Of a stretch of DNA of 16,000 nt, positions 1 through 15,299 are shown piece after piece. Under the pieces are notes generated by a model. That model did no database searches. It was not told the DNA's origin and was given only the letters and a program-made list of their open reading frames with translations. Positions within the stretch are counted from its first letter, which is position 1; every line of letters starts with the position of its first letter. This DNA comes from Trabulsiella odontotermitis (GTDB taxonomy: Bacteria; Pseudomonadota; Gammaproteobacteria; Enterobacterales; Enterobacteriaceae), in assembly GCF_001297775.1 (NCBI RefSeq), contig NZ_LIFX01000007.1:7558-23557 (forward strand). The letters run 5' to 3'. A program made the position numbers and the translations under genes.

Positions 1-104
1 GTACGTGTGGAAACCGACAGTCGCTGCGCCAGTTCATCCTGCGGCAGCGTTTCGTTTTGCAGCAAATCAAACAGTTGCGCTAAACGTTGGTTGGGGAATC
101 GCAC
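1..104 (-). CDS. 5' fragment (first ~35 codons) of a putative winged-HTH transcriptional regulator; the gene continues beyond the left edge
   Basis: GTG at 104..102 is the first start codon after an in-frame TAA (149..147). GAGGAA lies 7 nt upstream. Translation is MRFPNQRLAQLFDLLQNETLPQDELAQRLSVSTRT, matching the LxxLL...(D/E)ELAxxLxVSxRT pattern of N-terminal wHTH domains in DeoR/MtlR/LicR/LevR-type sugar regulators. It is too short and truncated to appear in the ORF track. Confidence 0.4.
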   Translation of the reverse strand, partial: MRFPNQRLAQLFDLLQNETLPQDELAQRLSVSTR

Positions 105-153: not shown

Positions 154-1305
154 TTAGGGTTTTGATGATATGACCATTTGCGATGGGCTTCCCACCGCCG
201 TGTAGTCCTCTGCAAAGGTTAACTTGCCATCGGTCGGCGACACGCTGAAACGGGTGATATTGTCGCTGCGCTGGTTCATCACATACAGCCAGCGGCCTTG
301 TGCATCGAGCGTCAGCGTGCGCGGATAGTCGCCGCGCGTCCAGATATCCTGCTGGTGTGTCAGCGTACCGTCGGCCGTTACAGTAAAGTGACCAATGCTG
401 TTATGCAAACGGTTGGCAACATACAGCTGTTTTCCGTCGTGGCTTAACACCAGACCGGCGGCAAAACTGGTGCCCTTGTAGCCGTCCGGTAATGCCGAAA
501 TCGTTTTACCTTCGCGCAGGGTGCCGGTGGCCGTATCCAGTTGATAGTAAGTTAGCGTAGAGGCTTCTTCGTTAATCAGCCACACGCCGTCGCCTTTCGG
601 AGTGAAAACAAAGTGGCGCGGACCGGCACCGTTCGAGGATGCCGCGACAAACGGCGGATCGTTCGGCGTCAGCTTGCCGCTCGCTGCGTCAAAGCGGTAC
701 TGATAGACGCGATCCAGCCCCAGATCGGTTGAAAAGACATACTTCCCGCTGGGATCAGCGGCGATCATGTGGGCATGCGGACCGTTATGGTCACTGATAG
801 CAAAGCTGCCTTCGACGGCACCTTCAGGTTTTGCCGCGCCCGCCGGACCTTCATCCTGATGCGTATCACTCGCCTCGCCCAGGCTGCCATCCGCTTTCAC
901 CGGCAATACAGCGATCGAACCGCTGACGTAATTCGCCACCAGCAGATGTTTACCGTCCGGCGTCAGCGAGAGATAGACCGGCCCGGCACCACCGGAAGCG
1001 GCCTGATTCAACTCGCTCAGCTCACCCTTTTCATTAATACGCCAGGCCTGTACGACGCCTTTTTCAACTTCGCTGGCGGCATACAGCGTTTTGCCGTCTG
1101 CGGAAACGGTGAGCTGGGCGGCGTTAGGTAGCGTGCTGACCAGCGTTTTGTCGCTGAGTACGCCGGTTTGTGGATCAACCGAAAAACGGTACAGCCCTTC
1201 ACCATTCGGATTGTAGGTGCCCACCCAGGCAAACTGCGTTTGCGCCGTGGCGGCGGTGGCGAGCAGAGAAAATGAAGCAACAAGCAGATGACGTGCAGAA
1301 AGCAT
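154..1305 (-). CDS. Exported 7-bladed beta-propeller lactonase (6-phosphogluconolactonase/YbhE-like fold family), 383 aa
   Basis: ATG at 1305 is preceded by AAGGAG (AAGGAGTTAATATG). The N-terminus MLSARHLLVASFSLLATAATA/QTQ looks like a Sec signal peptide with an AxA cleavage site. There are repeated blade motifs of the form DGK.LYxAN / GxGPRH: SADGKTLYAASE, TPDGKHLLVANY, DPSGKYVFSTDLG, GAGPRHFVFTPKG, SHDGKQLYVANR, DAQGRWLYVMNQ. Confidence 0.8.
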   Translation of the reverse strand: MLSARHLLVASFSLLATAATAQTQFAWVGTYNPNGEGLYRFSVDPQTGVLSDKTLVSTLPNAAQLTVSADGKTLYAASEVEKGVVQAWRINEKGELSELNQAASGGAGPVYLSLTPDGKHLLVANYVSGSIAVLPVKADGSLGEASDTHQDEGPAGAAKPEGAVEGSFAISDHNGPHAHMIAADPSGKYVFSTDLGLDRVYQYRFDAASGKLTPNDPPFVAASSNGAGPRHFVFTPKGDGVWLINEEASTLTYYQLDTATGTLREGKTISALPDGYKGTSFAAGLVLSHDGKQLYVANRLHNSIGHFTVTADGTLTHQQDIWTRGDYPRTLTLDAQGRWLYVMNQRSDNITRFSVSPTDGKLTFAEDYTAVGSPSQMVISSKP

Positions 1306-1385: not shown

Positions 1386-2126
1386 TTATTTAACCCGTTG
1401 TTTGGTCATCGCCAGCAACTGGCGTACATCGTCAGGGCGGGTATCACCACTGGCTTTATCAATGATGGAGCTATAGATGTGCGGAATGATTTTGCTGACC
1501 CCGGCGTCGAGCGCGATCTGCAGGATCTCGCCGAAGTTTTCCAGATCGATACCCCCGGTCGGCTCCAGCCAGAAATCATGACGGGCGCAGGCTTCCGCCA
1601 CCGCTTTGTATTCGTCACGGCACTTGAGGCCACCCATCGGGAAATATTTCACCGAACTGCCGCCCATGTCTTTCAGCAGGGCGATCGCGGTGTCAACCGG
1701 CACGATGCCATCCGCGGCGGCGCTGCTCAGCGGACCGGTGGAGATCTTCACCATGCCCGGCGTGCCGGTCGGGGAAATCAGCCCATTTACCACCGTCTGG
1801 TTCTGCCCCAGCAGCGCACGGCTGGTCGCGACGCCGGTGAAAACCTGGTTCACATGCTGCGGCTGTACCTGACGGGAGATTTCACTGACCATGGCCGACT
1901 GGTTCGGATCGCCCGCGCCCAGCCCGACGGACAGCGCGTTATCGATTAGCGCCGCATACTCGCGCATATCCGCCACCGCCGTGGCGACATCCGGGTAATT
2001 TTTGGAAAGCACACCGACCAGCACGTGGCCTTCTGCCGCTTCGTAAATGGCGCTGGCATTCGCTTTGCTTCCCGCCAGCACGTTCAGGCAGACACGATCA
2101 CGATAAAAATTCGGGGTCAGTTTCAT
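1386..2126 (-). CDS. KDGP (2-dehydro-3-deoxy-phosphogluconate) aldolase, DgaF/DagF-type (not the Eda type), 246 aa
   Basis: Full-length ORF. Its ATG overlaps the upstream gene's stop codon as ATGA (2123-2126). The sequence (MKLTPNFYRDRVCLNVLAGS..., GLGAGDPNQS, YFPMGGL, EPTGGID) matches my recollection of the KDGP-aldolase family exemplified by Salmonella DgaF. The gene sits directly downstream of a DgaE-like gene. Confidence 0.75.
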   Translation of the reverse strand: MKLTPNFYRDRVCLNVLAGSKANASAIYEAAEGHVLVGVLSKNYPDVATAVADMREYAALIDNALSVGLGAGDPNQSAMVSEISRQVQPQHVNQVFTGVATSRALLGQNQTVVNGLISPTGTPGMVKISTGPLSSAAADGIVPVDTAIALLKDMGGSSVKYFPMGGLKCRDEYKAVAEACARHDFWLEPTGGIDLENFGEILQIALDAGVSKIIPHIYSSIIDKASGDTRPDDVRQLLAMTKQRVK

Positions 2127-3241
2127 GCTTTTTTCTCCTTGTTCAGTACTTCGGCAATGCGGCGCGCGACGATCTCAAGCTGATCGGCGTTAACGCTACG
2201 CACATCCGCTTCGATGATCCCTTCGTTCGCTTTGTAACCACGGAAATAGATGGCGTACTGCCCTTGCTTAAGAGCGTTGACCAGATCGCCGGTCGCCACG
2301 TTGGTCACCGCTTCATCAAATTTGATTTCGGTACGGGCGATGTCGCGTCCGGCGCTGTCCCATACCACGCGGGCAGTCACACCCTTCAGGGTATTGAGCT
2401 GGTTGATGAATGGCGTCATCTTCGCCACCATCTCATCACCGCTCTCTTTGCTGGCGGTGAGGTAATGTTCGATGGCGCAAGTCAGGCCGAGAATGCCCTC
2501 TTTACCGACTTTCATCGCCCGGCCGATGCCTGCCGTCTGGCGTTTCACCCATTCGACGTACTGCGTTTTACCGATCACCAGTCCGCTGGTCGGCCCTTCG
2601 ATGGCTTTCGCGCCGCTGTAGATCACCAGATCGGCGCCCATGCGGTAGTAGCACTGCAAATCTTCTTCTGCCGCCGCATCAACAATCAGCGGCAGGTTGT
2701 GTTTACGCGCTACCACGGCGGCCTGCTCAACGCTGAGCATGCTTTTCTGTACGCAGTGGTGAGATTTGATATACAGGATCGCCGCAGTGCGTGGCGTGAC
2801 AGCCGCCGCGAGCTGATCGGCAGAGCATTCATTGGCATAGCCCGCTTCCACCAGCTTACCGCCGCCGAGCGCAACCATGGTGCCCACCGGCGCGCCAAAG
2901 TTAACGTTGTGCCCTTTCGGCAGCACGATTTCGTTATTTTCAATCGGCGTGACGTGGAGATTTTCCAGCAACCAGTCGCTGTCTTTTACCAGCACCGCCG
3001 CGACCGACTGCGCGATCCCCGCAGAAGCGCAAGAGACCACCGTCGCCCCTTCCACTTCCAGCAGTTTTGCAATGTATTCCCCGGTTTTGTTGACCAGATC
3101 TTTCATTTCAAAGTAGTGGTTCATGCCGCTCATGACGGCCTCGACCACTTCCGGACGCGGCGTGGAAACCCCTAACGCCGTCATGCGACCGGATGTATTA
3201 ATCACTTGTTTTAAATTGTATTTTTCAAAAATCGAAGGCAT
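2123..3241 (-). CDS. DgaE/SelA-like fold-type I PLP enzyme (putative amino-sugar-acid-phosphate ammonia-lyase), 372 aa
   Basis: The motif YSGAKAIEGPTSGLVIG parallels the SelA PLP-lysine motif SGDKLLGGPQAG. The start ATG lies inside the last codons of the upstream gene (17-nt overlap, 3225-3241). The gene is paired with a DgaF-type aldolase, as in the Salmonella dgaE-dgaF arrangement. Confidence 0.8.
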   Translation of the reverse strand: MPSIFEKYNLKQVINTSGRMTALGVSTPRPEVVEAVMSGMNHYFEMKDLVNKTGEYIAKLLEVEGATVVSCASAGIAQSVAAVLVKDSDWLLENLHVTPIENNEIVLPKGHNVNFGAPVGTMVALGGGKLVEAGYANECSADQLAAAVTPRTAAILYIKSHHCVQKSMLSVEQAAVVARKHNLPLIVDAAAEEDLQCYYRMGADLVIYSGAKAIEGPTSGLVIGKTQYVEWVKRQTAGIGRAMKVGKEGILGLTCAIEHYLTASKESGDEMVAKMTPFINQLNTLKGVTARVVWDSAGRDIARTEIKFDEAVTNVATGDLVNALKQGQYAIYFRGYKANEGIIEADVRSVNADQLEIVARRIAEVLNKEKKA

Positions 3242-4358
3242 GTTCCGTGCTCCCTTGTTCGGTCATATAGCCCTTGCCCGCACGAATAGCGGCCAGCGGC
3301 ACCAGAATATTGTCAGCCTGCAGGCTGTCGTTTTCGGCATCCACCATCACGGTGGGCTGATGTTTCAGCGTGAAGAGGGTCAGATCAGCGTCAAAGCCTG
3401 CTGCCAGGCGTCCTTTACGCGATAAGCGCAGCCCTTCTGCCGCATGGTCAGTGACACAGGCGATCACCTGCGGCAGCGACAGGCCAATGGCGAGAAATTT
3501 CGACATCACACTCGCAAGAGAATGTACCGGGCCGTCAATACGGTTGCGGCAGTAGATATCCGAGCTGATGGTGTGCGGCAGAATGCCCATGCTGATGGCG
3601 CGTCGCGCCACCTCAAAGCTGAAACTGGCCGTGCCGTGGCCCACATCGAGGCGCACGCCGCGCTGAATGGCGCGGGTAATGGAGGCACGCAGTTCGCCCG
3701 CGGGCGTCAGAATGCGGTTTGGTTTGCCGTTATAGCAGTGAGTAATGATATCGCCGGAGGTCAGCAGTTCCGCGATCTCATCCAGATTCGGCGGATTGTT
3801 GCCGATATGCACCATCAGCGGCAGATCGCCGTTCTCTTTCTGGATGCTTTTGGCGCGTTCCAGCGGCGTGATGCCGTTTTCGCCGACCACGCTACTGCTC
3901 ATACGCGCTTTCAGTCCGACGATAAAATCCGGGTGACGTTTGACCGCGTCGCGAACCGCAGCGGCATCAATATTCGCCATGTTCGACAGTTCGTTCTGGG
4001 CAATCAGCCCGACGCGGGATATATTCAACAGCGCATAGACGTCAGTGCTGGCCTGACGGGTCAACTGCCAGAAGTCGTCAATGTCGTCCGCACCGGTGCT
4101 GCCAGCGTCGATGACCGTGGTGACACCCGTCGCGATGCCGACGCTGTCAGGTTCATCGTGATAAATCGGGGATTTTGGGTAGCAATGGACGTGGGAGTCA
4201 ATCCAGCCTGCGCTGACATAAACCTCGCCGTGGAGTTCTACCGTTTTTTTCGCGGGTGCGGTGATATCGCCCAGTGCGGCAATTTTGCCGTCCAGAATGG
4301 CGATATCGGTCAGGGTATCGTCGACGAGGCGCGCACGGCGCAGGAGTAAATCAAACAT
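3225..4358 (-). CDS. Amidohydrolase-superfamily metallohydrolase (deacetylase/deacylase-like), 377 aa
   Basis: The metal-ligand set is visible: DSHVHCY (HxH), GLKARMS (candidate carboxylated Lys), MVHIGN, ITHCYNG and ISSDIY (Asp). The RBS is AGGAGAAAGG before the ATG at 4358. Confidence 0.8.
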   Translation of the reverse strand: MFDLLLRRARLVDDTLTDIAILDGKIAALGDITAPAKKTVELHGEVYVSAGWIDSHVHCYPKSPIYHDEPDSVGIATGVTTVIDAGSTGADDIDDFWQLTRQASTDVYALLNISRVGLIAQNELSNMANIDAAAVRDAVKRHPDFIVGLKARMSSSVVGENGITPLERAKSIQKENGDLPLMVHIGNNPPNLDEIAELLTSGDIITHCYNGKPNRILTPAGELRASITRAIQRGVRLDVGHGTASFSFEVARRAISMGILPHTISSDIYCRNRIDGPVHSLASVMSKFLAIGLSLPQVIACVTDHAAEGLRLSRKGRLAAGFDADLTLFTLKHQPTVMVDAENDSLQADNILVPLAAIRAGKGYMTEQGSTEHAFDF

Positions 4359-4376
4359 ACCTTTCTCCTGTGAAGG

Positions 4377-4394
4377 CGGGCGCCGGAGCGCCCG
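4377..4394 (-). other. Intra-operon RNA hairpin with a C(UCCG)G tetraloop
   Basis: The minus-strand RNA reads CGGGCGC-UCCG-GCGCCCG: a 7-bp GC stem with a UNCG-class tetraloop. It lies in the only sizeable gap of the operon (43 nt, between the DUF4310-like stop at 4402 and the amidohydrolase start at 4358). No U-tract follows, so it is not a classic intrinsic terminator. Confidence 0.5.
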
Positions 4395-4401
4395 TAAAAC
4401 A

Positions 4402-5046
4402 TTAGCTGATAGCGATGGGGAAGATAGAACCGAGGATCATGGCGCCAAGAATGGCTCCCCCGGTGATCGGCTTCTGCCAGAGGTAGAACAGCAGCGCGCC
4501 AATCAGTGAACCCACGCCGATCGGAATGGACGCCGTCATTGCGCTCAGGATAATCAACGGCCCGAGGAAGCGGCCTGACGCGTTACCGGCACCCATCATG
4601 ACGTCAGCACCGTAGGTGGAGTCGCTCTGGTTGATGGTGAACTTACGCGCCAGAATAATGATGTAACCAATCGCCAGACCAATCACCAGACCGGTAATCA
4701 GCGACGCAATGAAATTGGTCACCGGGAACATGATCCCCGCGCCCAGCAACAGCGCCGGAACCCCAAGACCCACACCGGTCTGGATAGCGCCGCCGATATC
4801 AAGGATCCCCACCAGCGAACCTTCGATGATACGGGCAAACAGGAAGCTCGCGCCAAACGCCGCGACCGCACCGTATACGCCGGTATCAATCCCCGCTTTC
4901 AGCATGGCCACGAAGGCCACTTCGTTAAACGCGCCGATACCGTAGAGGTAGTACATGTGCGTCCCGGCGAACACGCCGGAGGAGAGCAGGCCAACAAAGA
5001 TCGGGAACGACCAGTCGGCATACCAAAAACCTTTTTTCTCTTCCAT
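4402..5046 (-). CDS. Polytopic inner-membrane protein, DUF4310-like, 214 aa (function unknown)
   Basis: About 6 hydrophobic, Gly/Ala/Ile-rich segments. The RBS is CAGGAGCC, 4 nt before the ATG at 5046. There are 12 nt after the upstream stop. The family assignment is from recall of the conserved SFCGS/DUF4312/DUF4311/DUF4310 gene neighbourhood. Confidence 0.75.
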   Translation of the reverse strand: MEEKKGFWYADWSFPIFVGLLSSGVFAGTHMYYLYGIGAFNEVAFVAMLKAGIDTGVYGAVAAFGASFLFARIIEGSLVGILDIGGAIQTGVGLGVPALLLGAGIMFPVTNFIASLITGLVIGLAIGYIIILARKFTINQSDSTYGADVMMGAGNASGRFLGPLIILSAMTASIPIGVGSLIGALLFYLWQKPITGGAILGAMILGSIFPIAIS

Positions 5047-5058
5047 TTCAGGCTCCTG

Positions 5059-5835
5059 TTATTTACCGCTGAGAGAGTTATGGATCACATCCAGCCAGTT
5101 CGGGACGGTCAGATGGAAAGATTCGATCATCTTCATGTCGAAGCCGCGGAAGAAGCCGCTCAGAACGAACAGCGCTACAATCGCCACCATCATCACTTTG
5201 GTCACACGATGCCAGCCGCTCTCTTCAACGCCTTTACCGATCAGAATACCCAGTACCAGACCTGGCACGGCGTTACCCATGATCAGTTGCGCTGCGCCAC
5301 CGAAGACGGTTGCCCAGAAGCCGGATTTTTTACCCGCGTCGATAGCCGCCAGCCAGAAGATCACCGGCATCACGGTATTCACCAGCAGGTTTGCCGCCGG
5401 TACCAGTACCTTCACTGCCGTCACCTGCAGTGCTTCCGGTACGGACGAGGCGGTCAGGTTGAGGAAGGTCACCACGATCATGCCGATCACGCCGCAGGCG
5501 ATCGCCATTTTCTTCGGATCATGCAGCGTTTCACCGACATTGCGGTTTTTCAGCATCAGCGCTGCCGCACCCCAGTTAGGAATAATGCGGTGGTCGACGT
5601 CCTGTGTGAAAGAACCCGCCGCAACAGAGGAGGCCCACGCGTTGAAGAAGAAGCCTAACCCAAAGGAGAAGTGAGACGCAGGGTCCCCTTCGCAAGAGTT
5701 CAGTTCCCCCAACGTACGAAACGCGCCCATCCCCTGTGTGGTGGGCGCATGAAACATGCGTGCAGCCCCAGCACCCACGCCGACGCCCACGAGGCCACCG
5801 ATGATGAGTGATTTTATTAAAATTATCAGGAACAT
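5059..5835 (-). CDS. Polytopic inner-membrane protein, DUF4311-like, 258 aa (function unknown)
   Basis: About 6-7 hydrophobic segments (MFLIILIKSLIIGGLVGVGVGAGAA..., VMPVIFWLAAI..., VMMVAIVALFVLSGFF). It is tightly linked to its neighbours on the same strand. Confidence 0.75.
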   Translation of the reverse strand: MFLIILIKSLIIGGLVGVGVGAGAARMFHAPTTQGMGAFRTLGELNSCEGDPASHFSFGLGFFFNAWASSVAAGSFTQDVDHRIIPNWGAAALMLKNRNVGETLHDPKKMAIACGVIGMIVVTFLNLTASSVPEALQVTAVKVLVPAANLLVNTVMPVIFWLAAIDAGKKSGFWATVFGGAAQLIMGNAVPGLVLGILIGKGVEESGWHRVTKVMMVAIVALFVLSGFFRGFDMKMIESFHLTVPNWLDVIHNSLSGK

Positions 5836-5857
5836 TAGTCTGCCCTTTTAGTAAGAA

Positions 5858-6157
5858 TCAGCGTTGCGTGACAAAATCTACCCTGTCGAGGTTGATGGCG
5901 GTCACGTTGACGGTGACATCCAGCTCCACGCTGTACGACCGTCTTTCCCGGCGCAGAAAGAAGAACAAAAACGCTTCCTTACGCACCGCTTCACGCGCAT
6001 GAACAACTTGCACATCCTGTGGCTCAATACGCAGTAAAATGTGCGGTGAACTCTTCATCACCGCTGATTGCACCTGGTTAAGCGCATCGGAAAAAGCACG
6101 TGCTTTTGAGTCGCCTTTGCCCTTAACCCTCACCGTGGTGGTGAACTGCTCTTTCAT
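5858..6157 (-). CDS. Small soluble protein, DUF4312-like, 99 aa (function unknown)
   Basis: The ORF starts 2 nt after the stop codon of the SFCGS gene (TAA-CT-ATG), which suggests translational coupling. There are no hydrophobic segments. Confidence 0.7.
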   Translation of the reverse strand: MKEQFTTTVRVKGKGDSKARAFSDALNQVQSAVMKSSPHILLRIEPQDVQVVHAREAVRKEAFLFFFLRRERRSYSVELDVTVNVTAINLDRVDFVTQR

Positions 6158-6159
6158 AG

Positions 6160-6525
6160 TTATGCGCCGTATTTCTTTTTCCAGGCTTCCACCAGGCGCT
6201 CGCCCAGCTCTTCTTTATCCATAAAGCCAAAACCCAGAACGTTGCAGCCTTCATTGATGGCCGTTACGCCCTCATCCACAGAACGCATGCCGTATTTCGC
6301 TTTGTAGCCATATTTGTTTTGTGCCGTAATGGCGCCCGCGCCACCGCTACCGCAGAAAGAGATGCCGAAGGTGGCGTTTTCCGCTTTCATCACGTCGCCA
6401 AGCTTCATGTCTGCCGCTACGCCCGGAACAACCACGGCACGGCCACCGGCTTTCTCAACGCCTGCAGCCACTTTCTGTCCTTTGCCAAGGCGATCGCCAA
6501 TCACAACGGTAATCTGTTCCATCAT
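6160..6525 (-). CDS. Glycine-rich SFCGS-family protein, 121 aa (function unknown; EIIB-like Cys loop)
   Basis: It contains the literal family signature GISFCGSGGAGAITA (Cys58 codon at 6354..6352). AAGGAG overlaps the stop codon of the upstream PRD gene. The start is a double ATG ATG. Confidence 0.8.
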   Translation of the reverse strand: MMEQITVVIGDRLGKGQKVAAGVEKAGGRAVVVPGVAADMKLGDVMKAENATFGISFCGSGGAGAITAQNKYGYKAKYGMRSVDEGVTAINEGCNVLGFGFMDKEELGERLVEAWKKKYGA

Positions 6526-6532
6526 TTGCTCC

Positions 6533-6853
6533 TTAAAGGTTGTCTTTCGCTACTTCGAAGTGAACGGAGAGCAGCCAGGCTTCTTCCTCAGGGAGATTGC
6601 CGAACTGCGCGACCACTTCTCGGGCGAGCGTCATTGAATCTGGTGAAATTTCTTCGAACAGGCTGGCGTCCACTTCAGGCAGCGGCTCACCGGTCACTGA
6701 CCGATGCGCCATCGCGCGGACGTGAGAGGTCAGCATCTGCTCCTGTACTGCATTGGGGAGAATGTTGTGGCGGCTGAGCAGCGCAAAGGTCTGCTTCAGC
6801 ATGGTATCGGCAAGTTTCTCTGTCTGAACTGCCTGGTCCCCAACGTCGTTCAT
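6533..6853 (-). CDS. Stand-alone PRD (PTS regulation domain) protein, ~106 aa
   Basis: The two conserved His contexts typical of a PRD are present: MLTSHVRAMAHRS and EEAWLLSVHFEVA. I prefer the ATG at 6853 (GGAG, then 5 nt, then ATG) over the track's start at 6946. That start is actually a GTG lying inside a 20-bp palindrome, with no SD. No CAT/RNA-binding or HTH domain is evident. Confidence 0.7.
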   Translation of the reverse strand: MNDVGDQAVQTEKLADTMLKQTFALLSRHNILPNAVQEQMLTSHVRAMAHRSVTGEPLPEVDASLFEEISPDSMTLAREVVAQFGNLPEEEAWLLSVHFEVAKDNL

Positions 6854-6939
6854 TACCGCTCCGTTAATCACTCGTCTTACCCCGTTAATGTCTCTGAGAT
6901 AAAAGTAGCGTTGGGAAACCGGAGTTTGTAGACAGTTGT

Positions 6940-6959
6940 TTTCCACTTCGAAGTGGAAA
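6940..6959. promoter_or_regulatory. Perfect 20-bp palindrome TTTCCACTTCGAAGTGGAAA (candidate operator) upstream of the PRD operon
   Basis: Read directly from the sequence: 10/10 arm complementarity with no spacer. It overlaps a possible -35 (TTCGAA, 6952..6947) that lies 16 nt from a TACAAA -10 (6930..6925) on the minus strand. Confidence 0.5.
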
Positions 6960-6972
6960 GGAAACAGGCAGC

Positions 6973-6988
6973 AGTGATCTGTGCCACA
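6973..6988. promoter_or_regulatory. Weaker CRP-like site (minus strand TGTGG-N6-TCACT)
   Basis: 8/10 match to the TGTGA-N6-TCACA core. The centre is ~6980.5, about 62 bp upstream of the TSS implied by the TACAAA -10, which is class-I-like spacing. It overlaps a sigma-54 look-alike (see rejected list). Confidence 0.3.
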
Positions 6989-7023
6989 TAATTGCGGTGA
7001 ATAAGTTTAATTGACTGGAATTA

Positions 7024-7039
7024 TGTGATGAATATCACG
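7024..7039. promoter_or_regulatory. CRP-binding site candidate TGTGA-tgaata-TCACG
   Basis: 9/10 match to the CRP core TGTGA-N6-TCACA. The left flank is AT-rich. The centre is ~7031.5, which is 51 bp (about 5 helical turns) from the second CRP-like site. Confidence 0.5.
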
Positions 7040-7184
7040 GGGATTGGCGGCAAATCATGGCGTGTCGCAGCGAAAAACCTTGCGAGGCTTCTCGTAAAAA
7101 TGTGATGTCGATAAGGTTTGCTTATAAAAAATCGCTAAGATGCTTGCGGGTGCTTGAGACTTTCCGTCTCAGGCATGGGACGGA

Positions 7185-7300
7185 AAGTGGAAAGCCCCAC
7201 CTGACTATAAATCAAGGTGGGGCCCTAAACTTCACGTCTCAACCGTGGAGGTTAGTGCCTTACCTGCAGAAGCAAGGAGGCATCCATGAAACGACCGCAA
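7185..7300 (-). ncRNA. sok: Candidate Sok-like antisense RNA (exact ends unresolved)
   Basis: There are two candidate minus-strand promoters. One is TTGCTT(7275..7270)-N15-TAACCT(7254..7249), positioned as I recall the R1 sok promoter (TTGCGC-N17-TATCCT). The other is a perfect TATAAT at 7309..7304 with no good -35. On the minus strand the hairpin GCCCCACC-N14-GGTGGGGC (7223..7194), followed by TTTCCACTTTCC, could serve as its terminator. This is an inference by analogy only. Confidence 0.3.
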
Positions 7301-7434
7301 CCAATTATACGGGCGCTGCTGATAATTGCTATGACAATCATCGCAGTGACTCTGATTACCCGGCGATCGCTTTGCGAAATTCGATATCGCAACGGTTCGC
7401 AGGAAGTTGCAGCACGTCTGGATTGCAAATCTGA
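7255..7434 (+). CDS. mok: Possible mok-like overlapping reading frame (modulator of hok translation)
   Basis: This is the 3' part of the track's 7057..7434 ORF. A GTG at 7255 lies 3 nt after GGAGG (7247-7251), and the frame overlaps nearly all of hok, as mok does in R1. The start codon and spacing are suboptimal. An alternative 14-codon ORF (GTG 7245 to TGA 7289) ends in an ATGA overlap with the hok start. Confidence 0.3.
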   Translation: MPYLQKQGGIHETTATNYTGAADNCYDNHRSDSDYPAIALRNSISQRFAGSCSTSGLQI

Positions 7435-7441
7435 CAAGTAA
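7286..7441 (+). CDS. hok: Hok/Gef-family membrane toxin, 51 aa
   Basis: Hand translation gives [51 protein letters not shown]. It has one N-terminal TM helix followed by the family signature TR(K/R)xLCE(I/V)R.R.G..EVAA. Compare R1 Hok (...[28 protein letters not shown]) and E. coli HokB/HokC/HokD. AAGGAGG lies 5 nt before the ATG. The gene is absent from the ORF track because it is under 60 aa. Confidence 0.9.
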   Translation: [51 protein letters not shown]

Positions 7442-7452
7442 GGAGCTATACC

Positions 7453-7475
7453 GGGGGGAGTTCCGAACTCCCCCC
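7453..7475. other. 23-nt near-perfect GC-rich palindrome (GGGGGGAGTTC-C-GAACTCCCCCC) just after the hok stop
   Basis: Read directly from the sequence. It occupies the position of the stable 3' stem-loop of hok mRNAs and lies between convergent hok and cybC. There is no U-tract on either strand. Confidence 0.6.
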
Positions 7476-7513
7476 GCCCCACACAATGAGGGCGTAAGGC
7501 TCAAGCACCTATT

Positions 7514-7903
7514 TTAACGATACTTTTTGTGATAGGTATTGCGCGTCGTCACAAAGCCGTCAGCCGCAGCCTGCGCCTCTTTCACTTTACCTTCGTTAGC
7601 CAGTTTCAGCGCGCCGTCGATTTGCCCGACCAGCGTATCCAGGCCGTGGCGGAAATCTTTCATCTCGGCGCTGTCAGCCGCTTTGCCTTCCAGCTTCGGC
7701 GGCGTCTGTTTCTGCGCATCCAGCGCAGCGGCGCGCATTTTGCTCAGCGCGTCCTTCATGTCCGCGGCGTTATCGGTCTTCTGTACAATTTTCAGGTTTG
7801 CGTTGAGGGTATCCATATCGTCTTCAAGATCGGCGGCAAAGACGTTTGTCGCGCTGAGGACAAGGGAAGACACCGCTAACATCGCGAGGAGTTTTTTACG
7901 CAT
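7514..7903 (-). CDS. cybC: Soluble cytochrome b562 precursor, 129 aa
   Basis: Signal peptide [30 protein letters not shown]. The mature sequence is collinear with E. coli cytochrome b562 as I recall it (ADLEDNMETLNDNL...[32 protein letters not shown]...TTRNxYHxKYR). The heme ligands Met7 and His102 are retained. Confidence 0.95.
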
Positions 7904-14278: not shown

Positions 14279-14300
14279 GTTTTAATGCAATTTCAATATG

Positions 14301-15299
14301 TTACCGGGTTGTTGCGTTATTAACCCTCGTGACCGGCGAACTCTGGCGATTCTCCCACAGCACCGTCAGGCCACGCTGCAGGGCAATGAAAATGAACAAC
14401 AAAATGCCGATGGCGATCTTGGTCCACCACGAGCTGAGTGTGCCATCAAAGTTAATATAGGTCTGAATCAGCCCCTGGATTCCCACGCCAAACAGCGTTC
14501 CCAGCACCGTACCGACGCCGCCGCTGAGCAGCGTGCCGCCAATCACCACCGAGGCGATCGCGTCCAGCTCCACGCCAACGCCCGCCAGCGCATAGCCCGC
14601 CTGGGTATACACCGAGAACACAATGCCTGCCAGCGTCGCCAGCCCGGTGGAAAGCATGTAGATGCGAATGGTAGTGCTGCGCGTCGAAATCCCCATCAGG
14701 TTGGCCGACGTCGCGTTGCCGCCGATGGCATACACCTGATTGCCAAAACGGGTGCGGTGAGCGAGGAAAATCCCCACTACGACCACCAGCAACATCAGGA
14801 GCCCCATCGCGCTGAGACGCCCGCCGCCGGGAATCGTCCAGGCCAGATCAGAAAGCGAGTCATACACCGGATGGTTAATCGGGATCGACTCTTCAGAAAC
14901 CAGATAGCTGACACCGCGCAGGAAGAACATCCCGGCAAGGGTGATGATAAACGCCGGGATTTTGAGCGCGTCAATCAACAGCCCCATAAACGCGCCAAAC
15001 GCGCAACCCATCACCAGCACCAGCGGAAACGCCAGCAGCGGGGAGATCCCCCAGAAGCCGATCGCTTTCGCCAGAAAAACCCCGGTGAAAGCGATCACCG
15101 AGCCGACGGAAAGATCTATCCCCCCGGAGAGGATCACGAAGGTCATGCCGACAGCGATGATCCCAAGAAACGCGTTATCGGTCAGGATGTTGCAGATGAC
15201 GCGCGTCGAAGCGAACCCCGGAAACTGCGTCAGACAATAGAGATAGCCAAGGATAAACACCCCGAGCGTAATCATCAGCGGTAAATTACGTTTGATCAT
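14301..15299 (-). CDS. yjfF: Galactofuranose ABC transporter permease YjfF, 332 aa
   Basis: MIKRNLPLMIT.GVF.LGYLYCLTQFPGFASTRVICNILTDNAFLGIIAVGMTFVILSGGIDLSVGS... is collinear with E. coli YjfF. The start overlaps the ytfT stop by 14 nt. Confidence 0.95.
   Translation of the reverse strand: MIKRNLPLMITLGVFILGYLYCLTQFPGFASTRVICNILTDNAFLGIIAVGMTFVILSGGIDLSVGSVIAFTGVFLAKAIGFWGISPLLAFPLVLVMGCAFGAFMGLLIDALKIPAFIITLAGMFFLRGVSYLVSEESIPINHPVYDSLSDLAWTIPGGGRLSAMGLLMLLVVVVGIFLAHRTRFGNQVYAIGGNATSANLMGISTRSTTIRIYMLSTGLATLAGIVFSVYTQAGYALAGVGVELDAIASVVIGGTLLSGGVGTVLGTLFGVGIQGLIQTYINFDGTLSSWWTKIAIGILLFIFIALQRGLTVLWENRQSSPVTRVNNATTR

Follow-up and report, generated by a model that had tools for sequence, protein, structure and literature searches.

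What compound is degraded by three coupled enzymes that appear to call for a phosphorylated amino sugar acid, and how would that compound be phosphorylated where no kinase gene lies beside them? The question is raised by a locus of Trabulsiella odontotermitis (assembly GCF_001297775.1, contig NZ_LIFX01000007.1), analysed here in a stretch of 16,000 nucleotides (contig positions 7,558 to 23,557) referred to below as the window. Its minus strand encodes an amidohydrolase, a pyridoxal 5'-phosphate (PLP)-dependent lyase and an aldolase, in which a first-pass annotation, made from the sequence alone, had seen a pathway for an N-acyl-2-amino-2-deoxyaldonate phosphate. This trio of genes closes an eight-gene minus-strand operon at its 3' end (window 1386-6853); the order is PRD-only protein, SFCGS protein, DUF4312, DUF4311, DUF4310, amidohydrolase, lyase and aldolase, followed by genes for a lactonase and a regulator. 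All eight products exceed the curated cut-offs of the hypothetical-equivalog models (TIGR03577-TIGR03583 and TIGR01437) that describe the EF_0829-EF_0839 / AHA_3910-AHA_3917 neighbourhood in TIGRFAM/NCBIfam. The gene content is identical and the unit is the same; the database entry is hypothetical and names no substrate, and the enterobacterial copies add the exported lactonase. We propose, in a judgement about evenly balanced between right and wrong, that the trio is the catabolic arm of this unit, which would form a route for an N-acylated amino sugar acid linked to the phosphoenolpyruvate (PEP)-dependent phosphotransferase system (PTS).

The enzyme trio and its relation to the Dga pathway

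The three genes coincide exactly with three minus-strand open reading frames (ORFs) of the families first assigned to them. The amidohydrolase scores 577.6 bits against the EF_0837 profile TIGR03583 (cut-off 432), is ~88% identical to PDB entry 8wzy and matches 2ics, the Enterococcus orthologue EF0837, at E 7e-110. Its metal ligands (H56, H58, K150, H184, H207 and D267), already read as a complete set, do not vary at all among 10 orthologues, which come from three phyla, Proteobacteria and Firmicutes included. D-aminoacylases match it over the N-terminal ~70 residues only (E ~2e-4). The lyase reaches 609 bits against the DgaE-family profile TIGR01437 (cut-off 385), which places it in that subfamily, and 368 bits against the DgaE equivalog NF047797, which lies under the cut-off of 600 and leaves it outside the equivalog. 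It aligns over its full length with Salmonella DgaE (PDB 7lc0, 284 bits) and carries the SGxK...GP motif named at the outset as S209-G-A-K212...G216-P217, with K212 as the PLP lysine. The aldolase belongs to the DgaF/KDGP family by PF07071 (366 bits) and NF047796 (DgaF, 394 bits; cut-off 300), scores 412 bits against TIGR03581 and matches PDB 3m0z at E 2e-143.

Some database names fit this gene context poorly. The amidohydrolase deposits are called 'dihydroorotase' (8wzy) and 'adenine deaminase' (2ics), and entries of the DgaE-relative group 7lc0/8t7j are labelled 'selenocysteine synthase'. A separate oddity concerns the aldolase of E. faecalis IDRL-9065 (NZ_CP143580.1, a 'plasmid' record, 19335-20087), where the gene is broken into a 163-aa ORF followed by stops; the PLSDB gene table omits it. 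A second, identical copy of the aldolase, EF2975, exists in E. faecalis (PMC2912369).

The stop codon of the lyase gene overlaps the start of the aldolase gene in an ATGA, as had been seen before, and the amidohydrolase and lyase genes share a further 17 nt that had gone unremarked; each is provided with a Shine-Dalgarno sequence. Because the genes overlap, the three enzymes are taken to be translationally coupled. A PLP enzyme catalysing alpha,beta-elimination requires a free alpha-amino group and a leaving group on the beta carbon, and a class I aldolase of the KDGP type requires a 4-hydroxy-2-keto acid. The amidohydrolase is therefore best read as the amine-freeing step, since it is overlap-coupled to a lyase that needs the free amine, and deacylation of an N-acyl-amino-aldonate is proposed as its activity. 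The best-supported reading of the substrate would be an N-acyl-2-amino-2-deoxy-hexonate-6-phosphate, with N-acetyl-D-glucosaminate (GlcNAc1A) or an epimer as the most likely source compound. The aldolase is predicted to cleave 2-keto-3-deoxy-6-phosphogluconate (KDPG) to pyruvate and glyceraldehyde-3-phosphate; 2-keto-3-deoxy-6-phosphogalactonate (KDPGal) or unphosphorylated 2-keto-3-deoxygluconate (KDG) may be its substrate instead.

The closest known system is the Salmonella dgaABCDEF operon, in which DgaE is the ammonia-lyase acting on D-glucosaminate-6-phosphate and DgaF the KDPG aldolase (PMC9529869). It shares with the window cluster a homologous lyase and aldolase, the same catalytic lysine, histidine pair and arginine cluster, and the same end products. 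It also phosphorylates its substrate by a PTS and not by a kinase, in which it resembles the route proposed here. Unlike it, the window cluster adds an amidohydrolase, a PRD-only protein, four proteins of unassigned function and a regulator of the MtlR/LicR type, and it has neither an adjacent mannose-family Enzyme II set (EIIABCD) nor a sigma-54 DgaR. The possibility that the window set is the glucosaminate operon itself was considered and rejected: the source genome holds a complete dgaR-dgaABCDEF on another contig, with mannose-family IIA, IIB, IIC and IID. The DgaE encoded there scores 733 bits (equivalog cut-off 600) and DagR 1490 bits, and with this canonical DgaE the window lyase shares 40% identity. 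Since the canonical operon coexists in the genome, the window set would serve a different substrate, and a second lyase-aldolase pair that is differently regulated and supplied and has an added amidohydrolase argues for one that is related but distinct.

The authors of the DgaE work docked D-glucosaminate-6-phosphate with its phosphate at Arg301, Arg332 and Arg346, and described the loop histidines His162 and His163 (PMC9529869). The corresponding residues of the window lyase are R303, R334 and R348, and H161 and H162. A comparison of 11 lyases, those of Enterococcus, Brevibacillus, Bartonella and Aliivibrio included, shows no variation at the three arginines or H162 and almost none at H161. 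This conservation of the phosphate-site arginines and histidines favours a six-carbon 6-phosphate. The substrate class named by the first-pass annotation is thus upheld in part, by the chemical logic, the coexisting dga operon, the conserved arginines, and the lactonase, the chitin-related neighbours and the analogous GlcNAc1A pathway described below, and it stays a prediction. The window set is a variant of the Dga-type pathway; its uptake module, if it is a phosphotransferase, would be new in kind.

A kinase-free unit with links to the phosphotransferase system

No ORF of the 16-kb window matches a Pfam kinase family, as had been claimed. A dedicated kinase conserved beside the cluster in other genomes, which was to have spoken against the proposed pathway, is likewise missing from ~100 loci. 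The kinase-free core is seen at 80 enterobacterial loci, in Aliivibrio, Chromobacterium, Microvirga and Bartonella, and also in Enterococcus florum, two metagenomic Firmicutes, Brevibacillus and four further Bacillota. At the 80 enterobacterial loci the genes are spaced too tightly to leave room for another, and no homologue of PfkB, Enzyme I (EI), IIC or MupG occurs within +/-10 kb. In a decayed Lactococcus copy an acetate kinase gene comes next.

What does recur is the PTS. A fused HPr-Enzyme I gene adjoins the regulator gene in Bartonella plasmids and in Microvirga, and in one Firmicute the cluster is immediately followed by ptsH and ptsI. Nothing in the Microvirga genome matches the EIIC families PF02378, PF03611 and PF03609; its other PEP-utilising proteins are an EI-Ntr-like protein of 768 aa and pyruvate phosphate dikinase only. 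A search there for KdgK, whose lack would speak against a kinase encoded elsewhere, brought up a ribokinase and a tagatose kinase, together with a single ambiguous PfkB protein (160 bits against a cut-off of 400). In a second Firmicute layout, a gene for a Cof-type sugar-phosphatase of the haloacid dehalogenase (HAD) superfamily follows the aldolase gene in all four clusters.

The regulator gene begins at window position 104 and encodes 636 aa (contig 5751-7661). Its Pfam domains are HTH_11, Mga, PRD and PTS_EIIA_2; an EIIB(Gat)-like 'LLVCDxG' motif lies between PRD and EIIA, and the EIIA domain has a 'GIALPH' histidine motif. By this architecture it is an activator of the MtlR/LicR/ManR class, with which it shares the HTH, Mga and PRD domains, the EIIB(Gat)-like cysteine and the EIIA(Mtl/Fru) histidine motif. 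MtlR/LicR-type regulators with EIIB and EIIA domains are known only from PTS operons. Unlike the PTS operons controlled by MtlR, LicR or ManR, the window operon has no recognisable EIIA, EIIB or EIIC and bears an extra PRD-only protein at its head.

The unit is thus linked to the PTS by its EI/HPr neighbours, by the PRD-only protein and by the PRD/EIIB/EIIA regulator. Given these recurrent neighbours and the lack of a conserved kinase, PEP-dependent phosphorylation through the upstream module is the most economical solution, and on this genomic evidence it probably replaces the missing kinase. The earlier statement that no gene of the window accounts for the phosphorylation was therefore too strong: it was right about the kinase, and five genes (4402-6853) and the regulator are PTS-linked. 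The trio had also been treated as a unit by itself. Its enzymes are real, and the part left out comprises the upstream genes up to position 6853, the lactonase gene (154-1305) and the regulator gene from position 104.

In the first of the five upstream products, the PRD-only protein, both PRD histidines, H44 and H98, are invariant in 10 orthologues; a GGAG stands 7 nt ahead of its ATG. The glycine-rich SFCGS protein was modelled by AlphaFold2 (AF2) with a predicted local distance difference test score (pLDDT) of 91, and its best PDB folds are RpiB and LacB, at template modelling (TM) scores of 0.65-0.72. An invariant cysteine, Cys58, aligns with that of the CGTG motif of E. coli RpiB. The protein is at least 76% identical across Proteobacteria and 61-77% across phyla, has no histidine at all and ends ahead of the C-terminal segment of RpiB. 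The RpiB profile PF02502 gives no match to it and the NCBIfam RpiB models match only weakly (E ~3e-3). A plain EIIB homologue was considered for SFCGS and rejected, EIIB being absent from its top fold matches. One Klebsiella pneumoniae SFCGS database protein, with an 8-residue insertion and scrambled residues after SFCGSGG, was left out of the alignment as an apparent artefact of assembly or of an adaptor.

DUF4312 is modelled (AF2, pLDDT 88.7) as a beta-alpha-alpha-beta-beta fold. DUF4311 is 66-81% identical across phyla, and DUF4310, with ~5 transmembrane segments by hydropathy, 66-83% identical between Proteobacteria and Firmicutes. Profile searches with the two membrane proteins against PDB sequences found no relative, and hhalign did not detect a relationship between them, which argues against a paralogy of the IIC/IID kind. 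Between Proteobacteria and Firmicutes SFCGS, DUF4312, DUF4311 and DUF4310 are 61-83% identical, as against 41-54% for the three enzymes of the same operons; such conservation fits a machine with multiple partners and marks the uptake module as being under unusually strong constraint. In one Bacillota genome (contig span 94630-114600) the regulator, PRD, SFCGS, DUF4312, DUF4311 and DUF4310 genes occur with no amidohydrolase, lyase or aldolase gene downstream; a stretch of ~1.6 kb that lacks any long ORF leads on to genes for TetR and an ABC exporter. Decay of the enzyme arm, or use of the uptake module by itself, would explain this arrangement.

The gene families, catalytic residues, operon structure and its conservation, and the syntenic linkage to the PTS, rest on observation; what the substrate is, whether it is phosphorylated and how the phosphate reaches it are inferred, and would fit together as follows. 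An N-acylated 2-amino-2-deoxy-hexonate, most likely GlcNAc1A derived from oxidised N-acetylglucosamine (GlcNAc) or chitin, would enter through the DUF4311/DUF4310 membrane pair; part of it may arrive as a lactone, which the exported lactonase would open. Phosphate would pass from PEP through EI and HPr to C6 of the sugar acid, the carrier probably being Cys58 of the RpiB-fold SFCGS protein. The amidohydrolase would then strip off the acyl group, the DgaE paralogue would eliminate water and ammonia to give a 2-keto-3-deoxy-6-phospho-hexonate, and the DgaF-type aldolase would split this product into pyruvate and glyceraldehyde-3-phosphate. A bolder version, which we put forward tentatively and consider doubtful, holds that SFCGS, DUF4312, DUF4311 and DUF4310, perhaps joined by the PRD-only protein, make up a PEP-dependent group translocator family not described before, with an RpiB-fold cysteine protein standing in for EIIB, and that the trio is the first phosphorylate-first route for GlcNAc1A or an epimer. 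Such a route would close the gap seen in bacteria that have LPMOs (lytic polysaccharide monooxygenases) and lack OngB/OngC, the GlcNAc1A enzymes described below, with Aeromonas as an example.

Oxidised chitin as a proposed substrate source, and competing readings

Several neighbours give independent hints at an amino sugar acid derived from chitin or GlcNAc. One is the exported lactonase of the island. Another is a chitinase of glycoside hydrolase family 18 (GH18) with a CBM2 carbohydrate-binding module, divergent from the Brevibacillus cluster. In E. faecalis, a IIC of the lactose/cellobiose/chitobiose family, a MupG-family 6-phospho-glycosidase and a KDG-kinase-like PfkB protein are encoded by genes placed within the cluster or added to it. 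Among 150 sampled genomes of the same order, genes for lytic polysaccharide monooxygenases (LPMOs) occur in 6 of 11 cluster-positive genomes against 30 of 138 cluster-negative ones.

For the amidohydrolase, a comparison is offered by its own COG. The COG3964 enzymes Atu3266 and Oant2987, the only ones known to have been assayed, were reportedly found by Ornelas and colleagues in 2013 to hydrolyse the ester acetyl-(R)-mandelate, and the reported preference of Atu3266 for (R)-alpha-acyl-carboxylates has the configuration of an N-acetyl-D-amino acid such as GlcNAc1A. These enzymes share with the window amidohydrolase the COG and the binuclear ligand set (PDB 2ogj, 212 bits); they differ from it in belonging to another subgroup (~30% identity) and in not being tied to a PLP lyase or an aldolase.

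A pathway of similar logic is known in Pseudoalteromonas. There, C1-oxidised chitin yields GlcNAc1A, which enters through a transporter of the sodium:solute symporter (SSS) family and loses its acetyl group to OngB, an amidohydrolase resembling D-aminoacylases; the product is deaminated to KDG by OngC, a PLP enzyme of fold type III, then phosphorylated by KdgK and cleaved by an aldolase (PMC9537276, PMC12017989). Its authors weighed the order in which phosphorylation comes first, followed by deacetylation and deamination, and rejected it for their organism (PMC9537276, PMC12017989). The likeness to the window cluster lies in the de-N-acetylation by a metal-dependent amidohydrolase, the PLP-dependent deamination to a 2-keto-3-deoxy acid, the aldol cleavage and the likely source of the substrate. 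The proteins are not homologous, however: OngB is D-aminoacylase-like, OngC of fold type III and the transporter of the SSS family. Moreover, the Ong cluster holds a kinase, KdgK, that acts after deamination, whereas the window has none, which would imply the phosphorylate-first order. The enzymes of the window cluster are those that this alternative order would call for, drawn from unrelated families. In a study of chitin use in Aeromonas, LPMO, KdgK and KdgA were present and OngB and OngC were not, and other deacetylases or deaminases were left possible. Aeromonas is one of the two hosts that give the EF_0829-EF_0839 / AHA_3910-AHA_3917 cluster its name.

Several observations weigh against the PTS-linked route for an amino sugar acid. 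None of the four upstream proteins falls in a known EII family, so that a canonical PTS Enzyme II is not recognised; there is no EIIB among the top 50 fold matches of SFCGS, which resembles a sugar-phosphate isomerase; and the DUF4312 model has no PDB fold match (all TM <0.4) and the protein no invariant histidine or cysteine. The HPr-EI neighbours could serve the PRD regulators only. The role of the arginines in binding phosphate comes from a manual docking and not from the structure of a complex. The LPMO association is a weak one, with kinship as a confounder: three of the six positives belong to one genus and the source genome has no LPMO, so that it is only suggestive. Finally, a literature search found no functional study of the cluster proteins and no experiment on them, only incidental mentions.

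A first competing reading, which we consider unlikely, keeps the substrate class and lets it enter unphosphorylated. DUF4311/DUF4310 would then be a secondary carrier, deacetylation and deamination would precede phosphorylation by an unlinked housekeeping KdgK and DgaF-type cleavage of KDPG, and the PRD proteins and EI/HPr would regulate transcription only. The GlcNAc1A pathway of Pseudoalteromonas has been shown to run in this order (PMC9537276), and such a late phosphorylation is allowed by the source genome, which has a KdgK equivalog (522 bits); a KDG-kinase-like PfkB gene follows the aldolase gene in E. faecalis, alone among the loci examined, and the four upstream proteins have no canonical EII domain. 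It is harder to reconcile with the 6-phosphate arginine cluster of DgaE, invariant in all lyases of the cluster, with the ~100 other loci that lack a kinase, with the HAD sugar-phosphatases within the operon in one Firmicute layout, with the HPr-EI gene that adjoins the cluster in a genome without a recognisable EIIC and with the MtlR/LicR-type regulator. It is quite unlikely, in our view, that the amidohydrolase instead acts on some other beta-hydroxy-alpha-amino acid derivative, by ring opening of a cyclic amide or ester or by removal of an O-acetyl, carbamoyl or peptide group. The ester hydrolysis reported for Atu3266 and Oant2987 and the variety of names given to the family in databases speak for such an activity, but the enzyme is always overlap-coupled to a DgaE-type lyase that needs the free alpha-amino group, the reported (R)-preference of Atu3266 agrees with GlcNAc1A, and the lactonase, chitinase, MupG and chitobiose-IIC neighbours point to amino sugar acids.

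The remaining reading concerns SFCGS, which might be an isomerase or epimerase of the RpiB/LacAB type acting on a phosphorylated intermediate, for instance on epimers ahead of the lyase, with the phosphate donor elsewhere. RpiB and LacB are indeed its best folds, and its cysteine and an aspartate in the beta1 loop align with catalytic residues of RpiB. Nonetheless, we hold this to be very unlikely. The alignment of the 121-aa protein stops near RpiB residue 125-130, short of the C-terminal arginines that presumably bind the phosphate in RpiB, and the position of RpiB His99 is not a histidine. SFCGS always adjoins two membrane proteins, is conserved far above the enzymes (61-77% against 41-54% across phyla), and an aldonate pathway needs no aldose-ketose step.

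The unit is widespread and has had no substrate assigned to it. If the PTS-linked route proposed here is correct, it would provide a second, PTS-type entry of oxidised chitin sugars into central metabolism. It would also give a function to annotations and structures now named 'dihydroorotase', 'adenine deaminase' and 'selenocysteine synthase', and to the PTS a new permease architecture.

Distribution and chromosomal setting

In Enterobacteriaceae (80 species) the gene order is pmbA-cybC-[eight genes]-(lactonase)-regulator-nrdGD. The eight core genes are present and co-linear at all 80 loci, and the regulator gene at 79, the exception being a contig end; the lactonase gene lies between aldolase and regulator genes in 56 of the 80. 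Most of the Enterobacteriaceae genera sampled, Klebsiella, Enterobacter, Citrobacter and Salmonella among them, carry the unit at one chromosomal site. Further hosts are Serratia, Yersinia, Vibrio/Aliivibrio, Aeromonas, Chromobacterium, Enterococcus and Bacilli, and the operon has the regulator gene behind it in Vibrio, Chromobacterium, Microvirga and Bartonella as well. In wider samples it is sparse: 12 of 150 genomes of the same order are positive, concentrated in a few families, and 6 of 401 Bacillota genomes; apart from the source genome none of 299 evenly drawn Gammaproteobacteria carries it, and a megablast search with the island found nothing in 5,426 E. coli genomes. The unit is sporadic and probably mobile between lineages, and it is fixed at one site within the Enterobacteriaceae.

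Table 1. Genes of the operon and its flank in the window, in order of coordinates
Feature	Coordinates	Strand	Length	Remarks
Regulator, 5' end	1..104	-	first 104 nt (~35 codons)	remainder left of the window
Sec-exported 7-bladed beta-propeller lactonase, accessory member	154..1305	-	383 aa	PF10282, 338.7 bits
DgaF-type KDGP aldolase	1386..2126	-	246 aa	
DgaE-family PLP ammonia-lyase paralogue	2123..3241	-	372 aa	
COG3964 / EF_0837-family binuclear amidohydrolase, predicted de-N-acylase	3225..4358	-	377 aa	
DUF4310 / EF_0833 polytopic membrane protein	4402..5046	-	214 aa	PF14187, 360.7 bits
DUF4311 / EF_0832 polytopic membrane protein	5059..5835	-	258 aa	PF14188, 404.7 bits; hydropathy
DUF4312 / EF_0831 small soluble protein	5858..6157	-	99 aa	PF14189, 118 bits
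SFCGS glycine-rich protein / EF_0830	6160..6525	-	121 aa	PF14272, 203 bits
Stand-alone PRD protein / EF_0829	6533..6853	-	106 aa	from ATG at 6853; TIGR03582, 137 bits

The source genome measures 4.59 Mb, and the window proteins are 97-100% identical to those of Trabulsiella guamensis. The lactonase (Table 1) keeps its Sec signal peptide throughout the enterobacterial copies and is only 24% identical to the cytoplasmic Pgl of the same genome. Its gene has an AAGGAG of its own and is separated from the aldolase gene by an 80-nt spacer (1306-1385) that holds a GC-rich hairpin, CCCTCTC...GAGAGGG, with no T-run.

Leftward of the regulator gene, RelB and ParE genes precede nrdG and nrdD. The RelB antitoxin/ParE toxin pair (contig 5133-5688) lies between the regulator gene and nrdG, and a hok locus (window 7148-7512) stands on the other side, so that the island is flanked by toxin-antitoxin loci. 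Apart from this hok-type locus, the rest of the window holds cybC, pmbA, darP/yjgA, mpl, fbp, a chemoreceptor gene and two ABC permease genes. A 328-aa ORF on the plus strand (14298-15284), with no family match, runs antisense to one of these permease genes (14301-15299, minus strand) and is most likely a shadow ORF.

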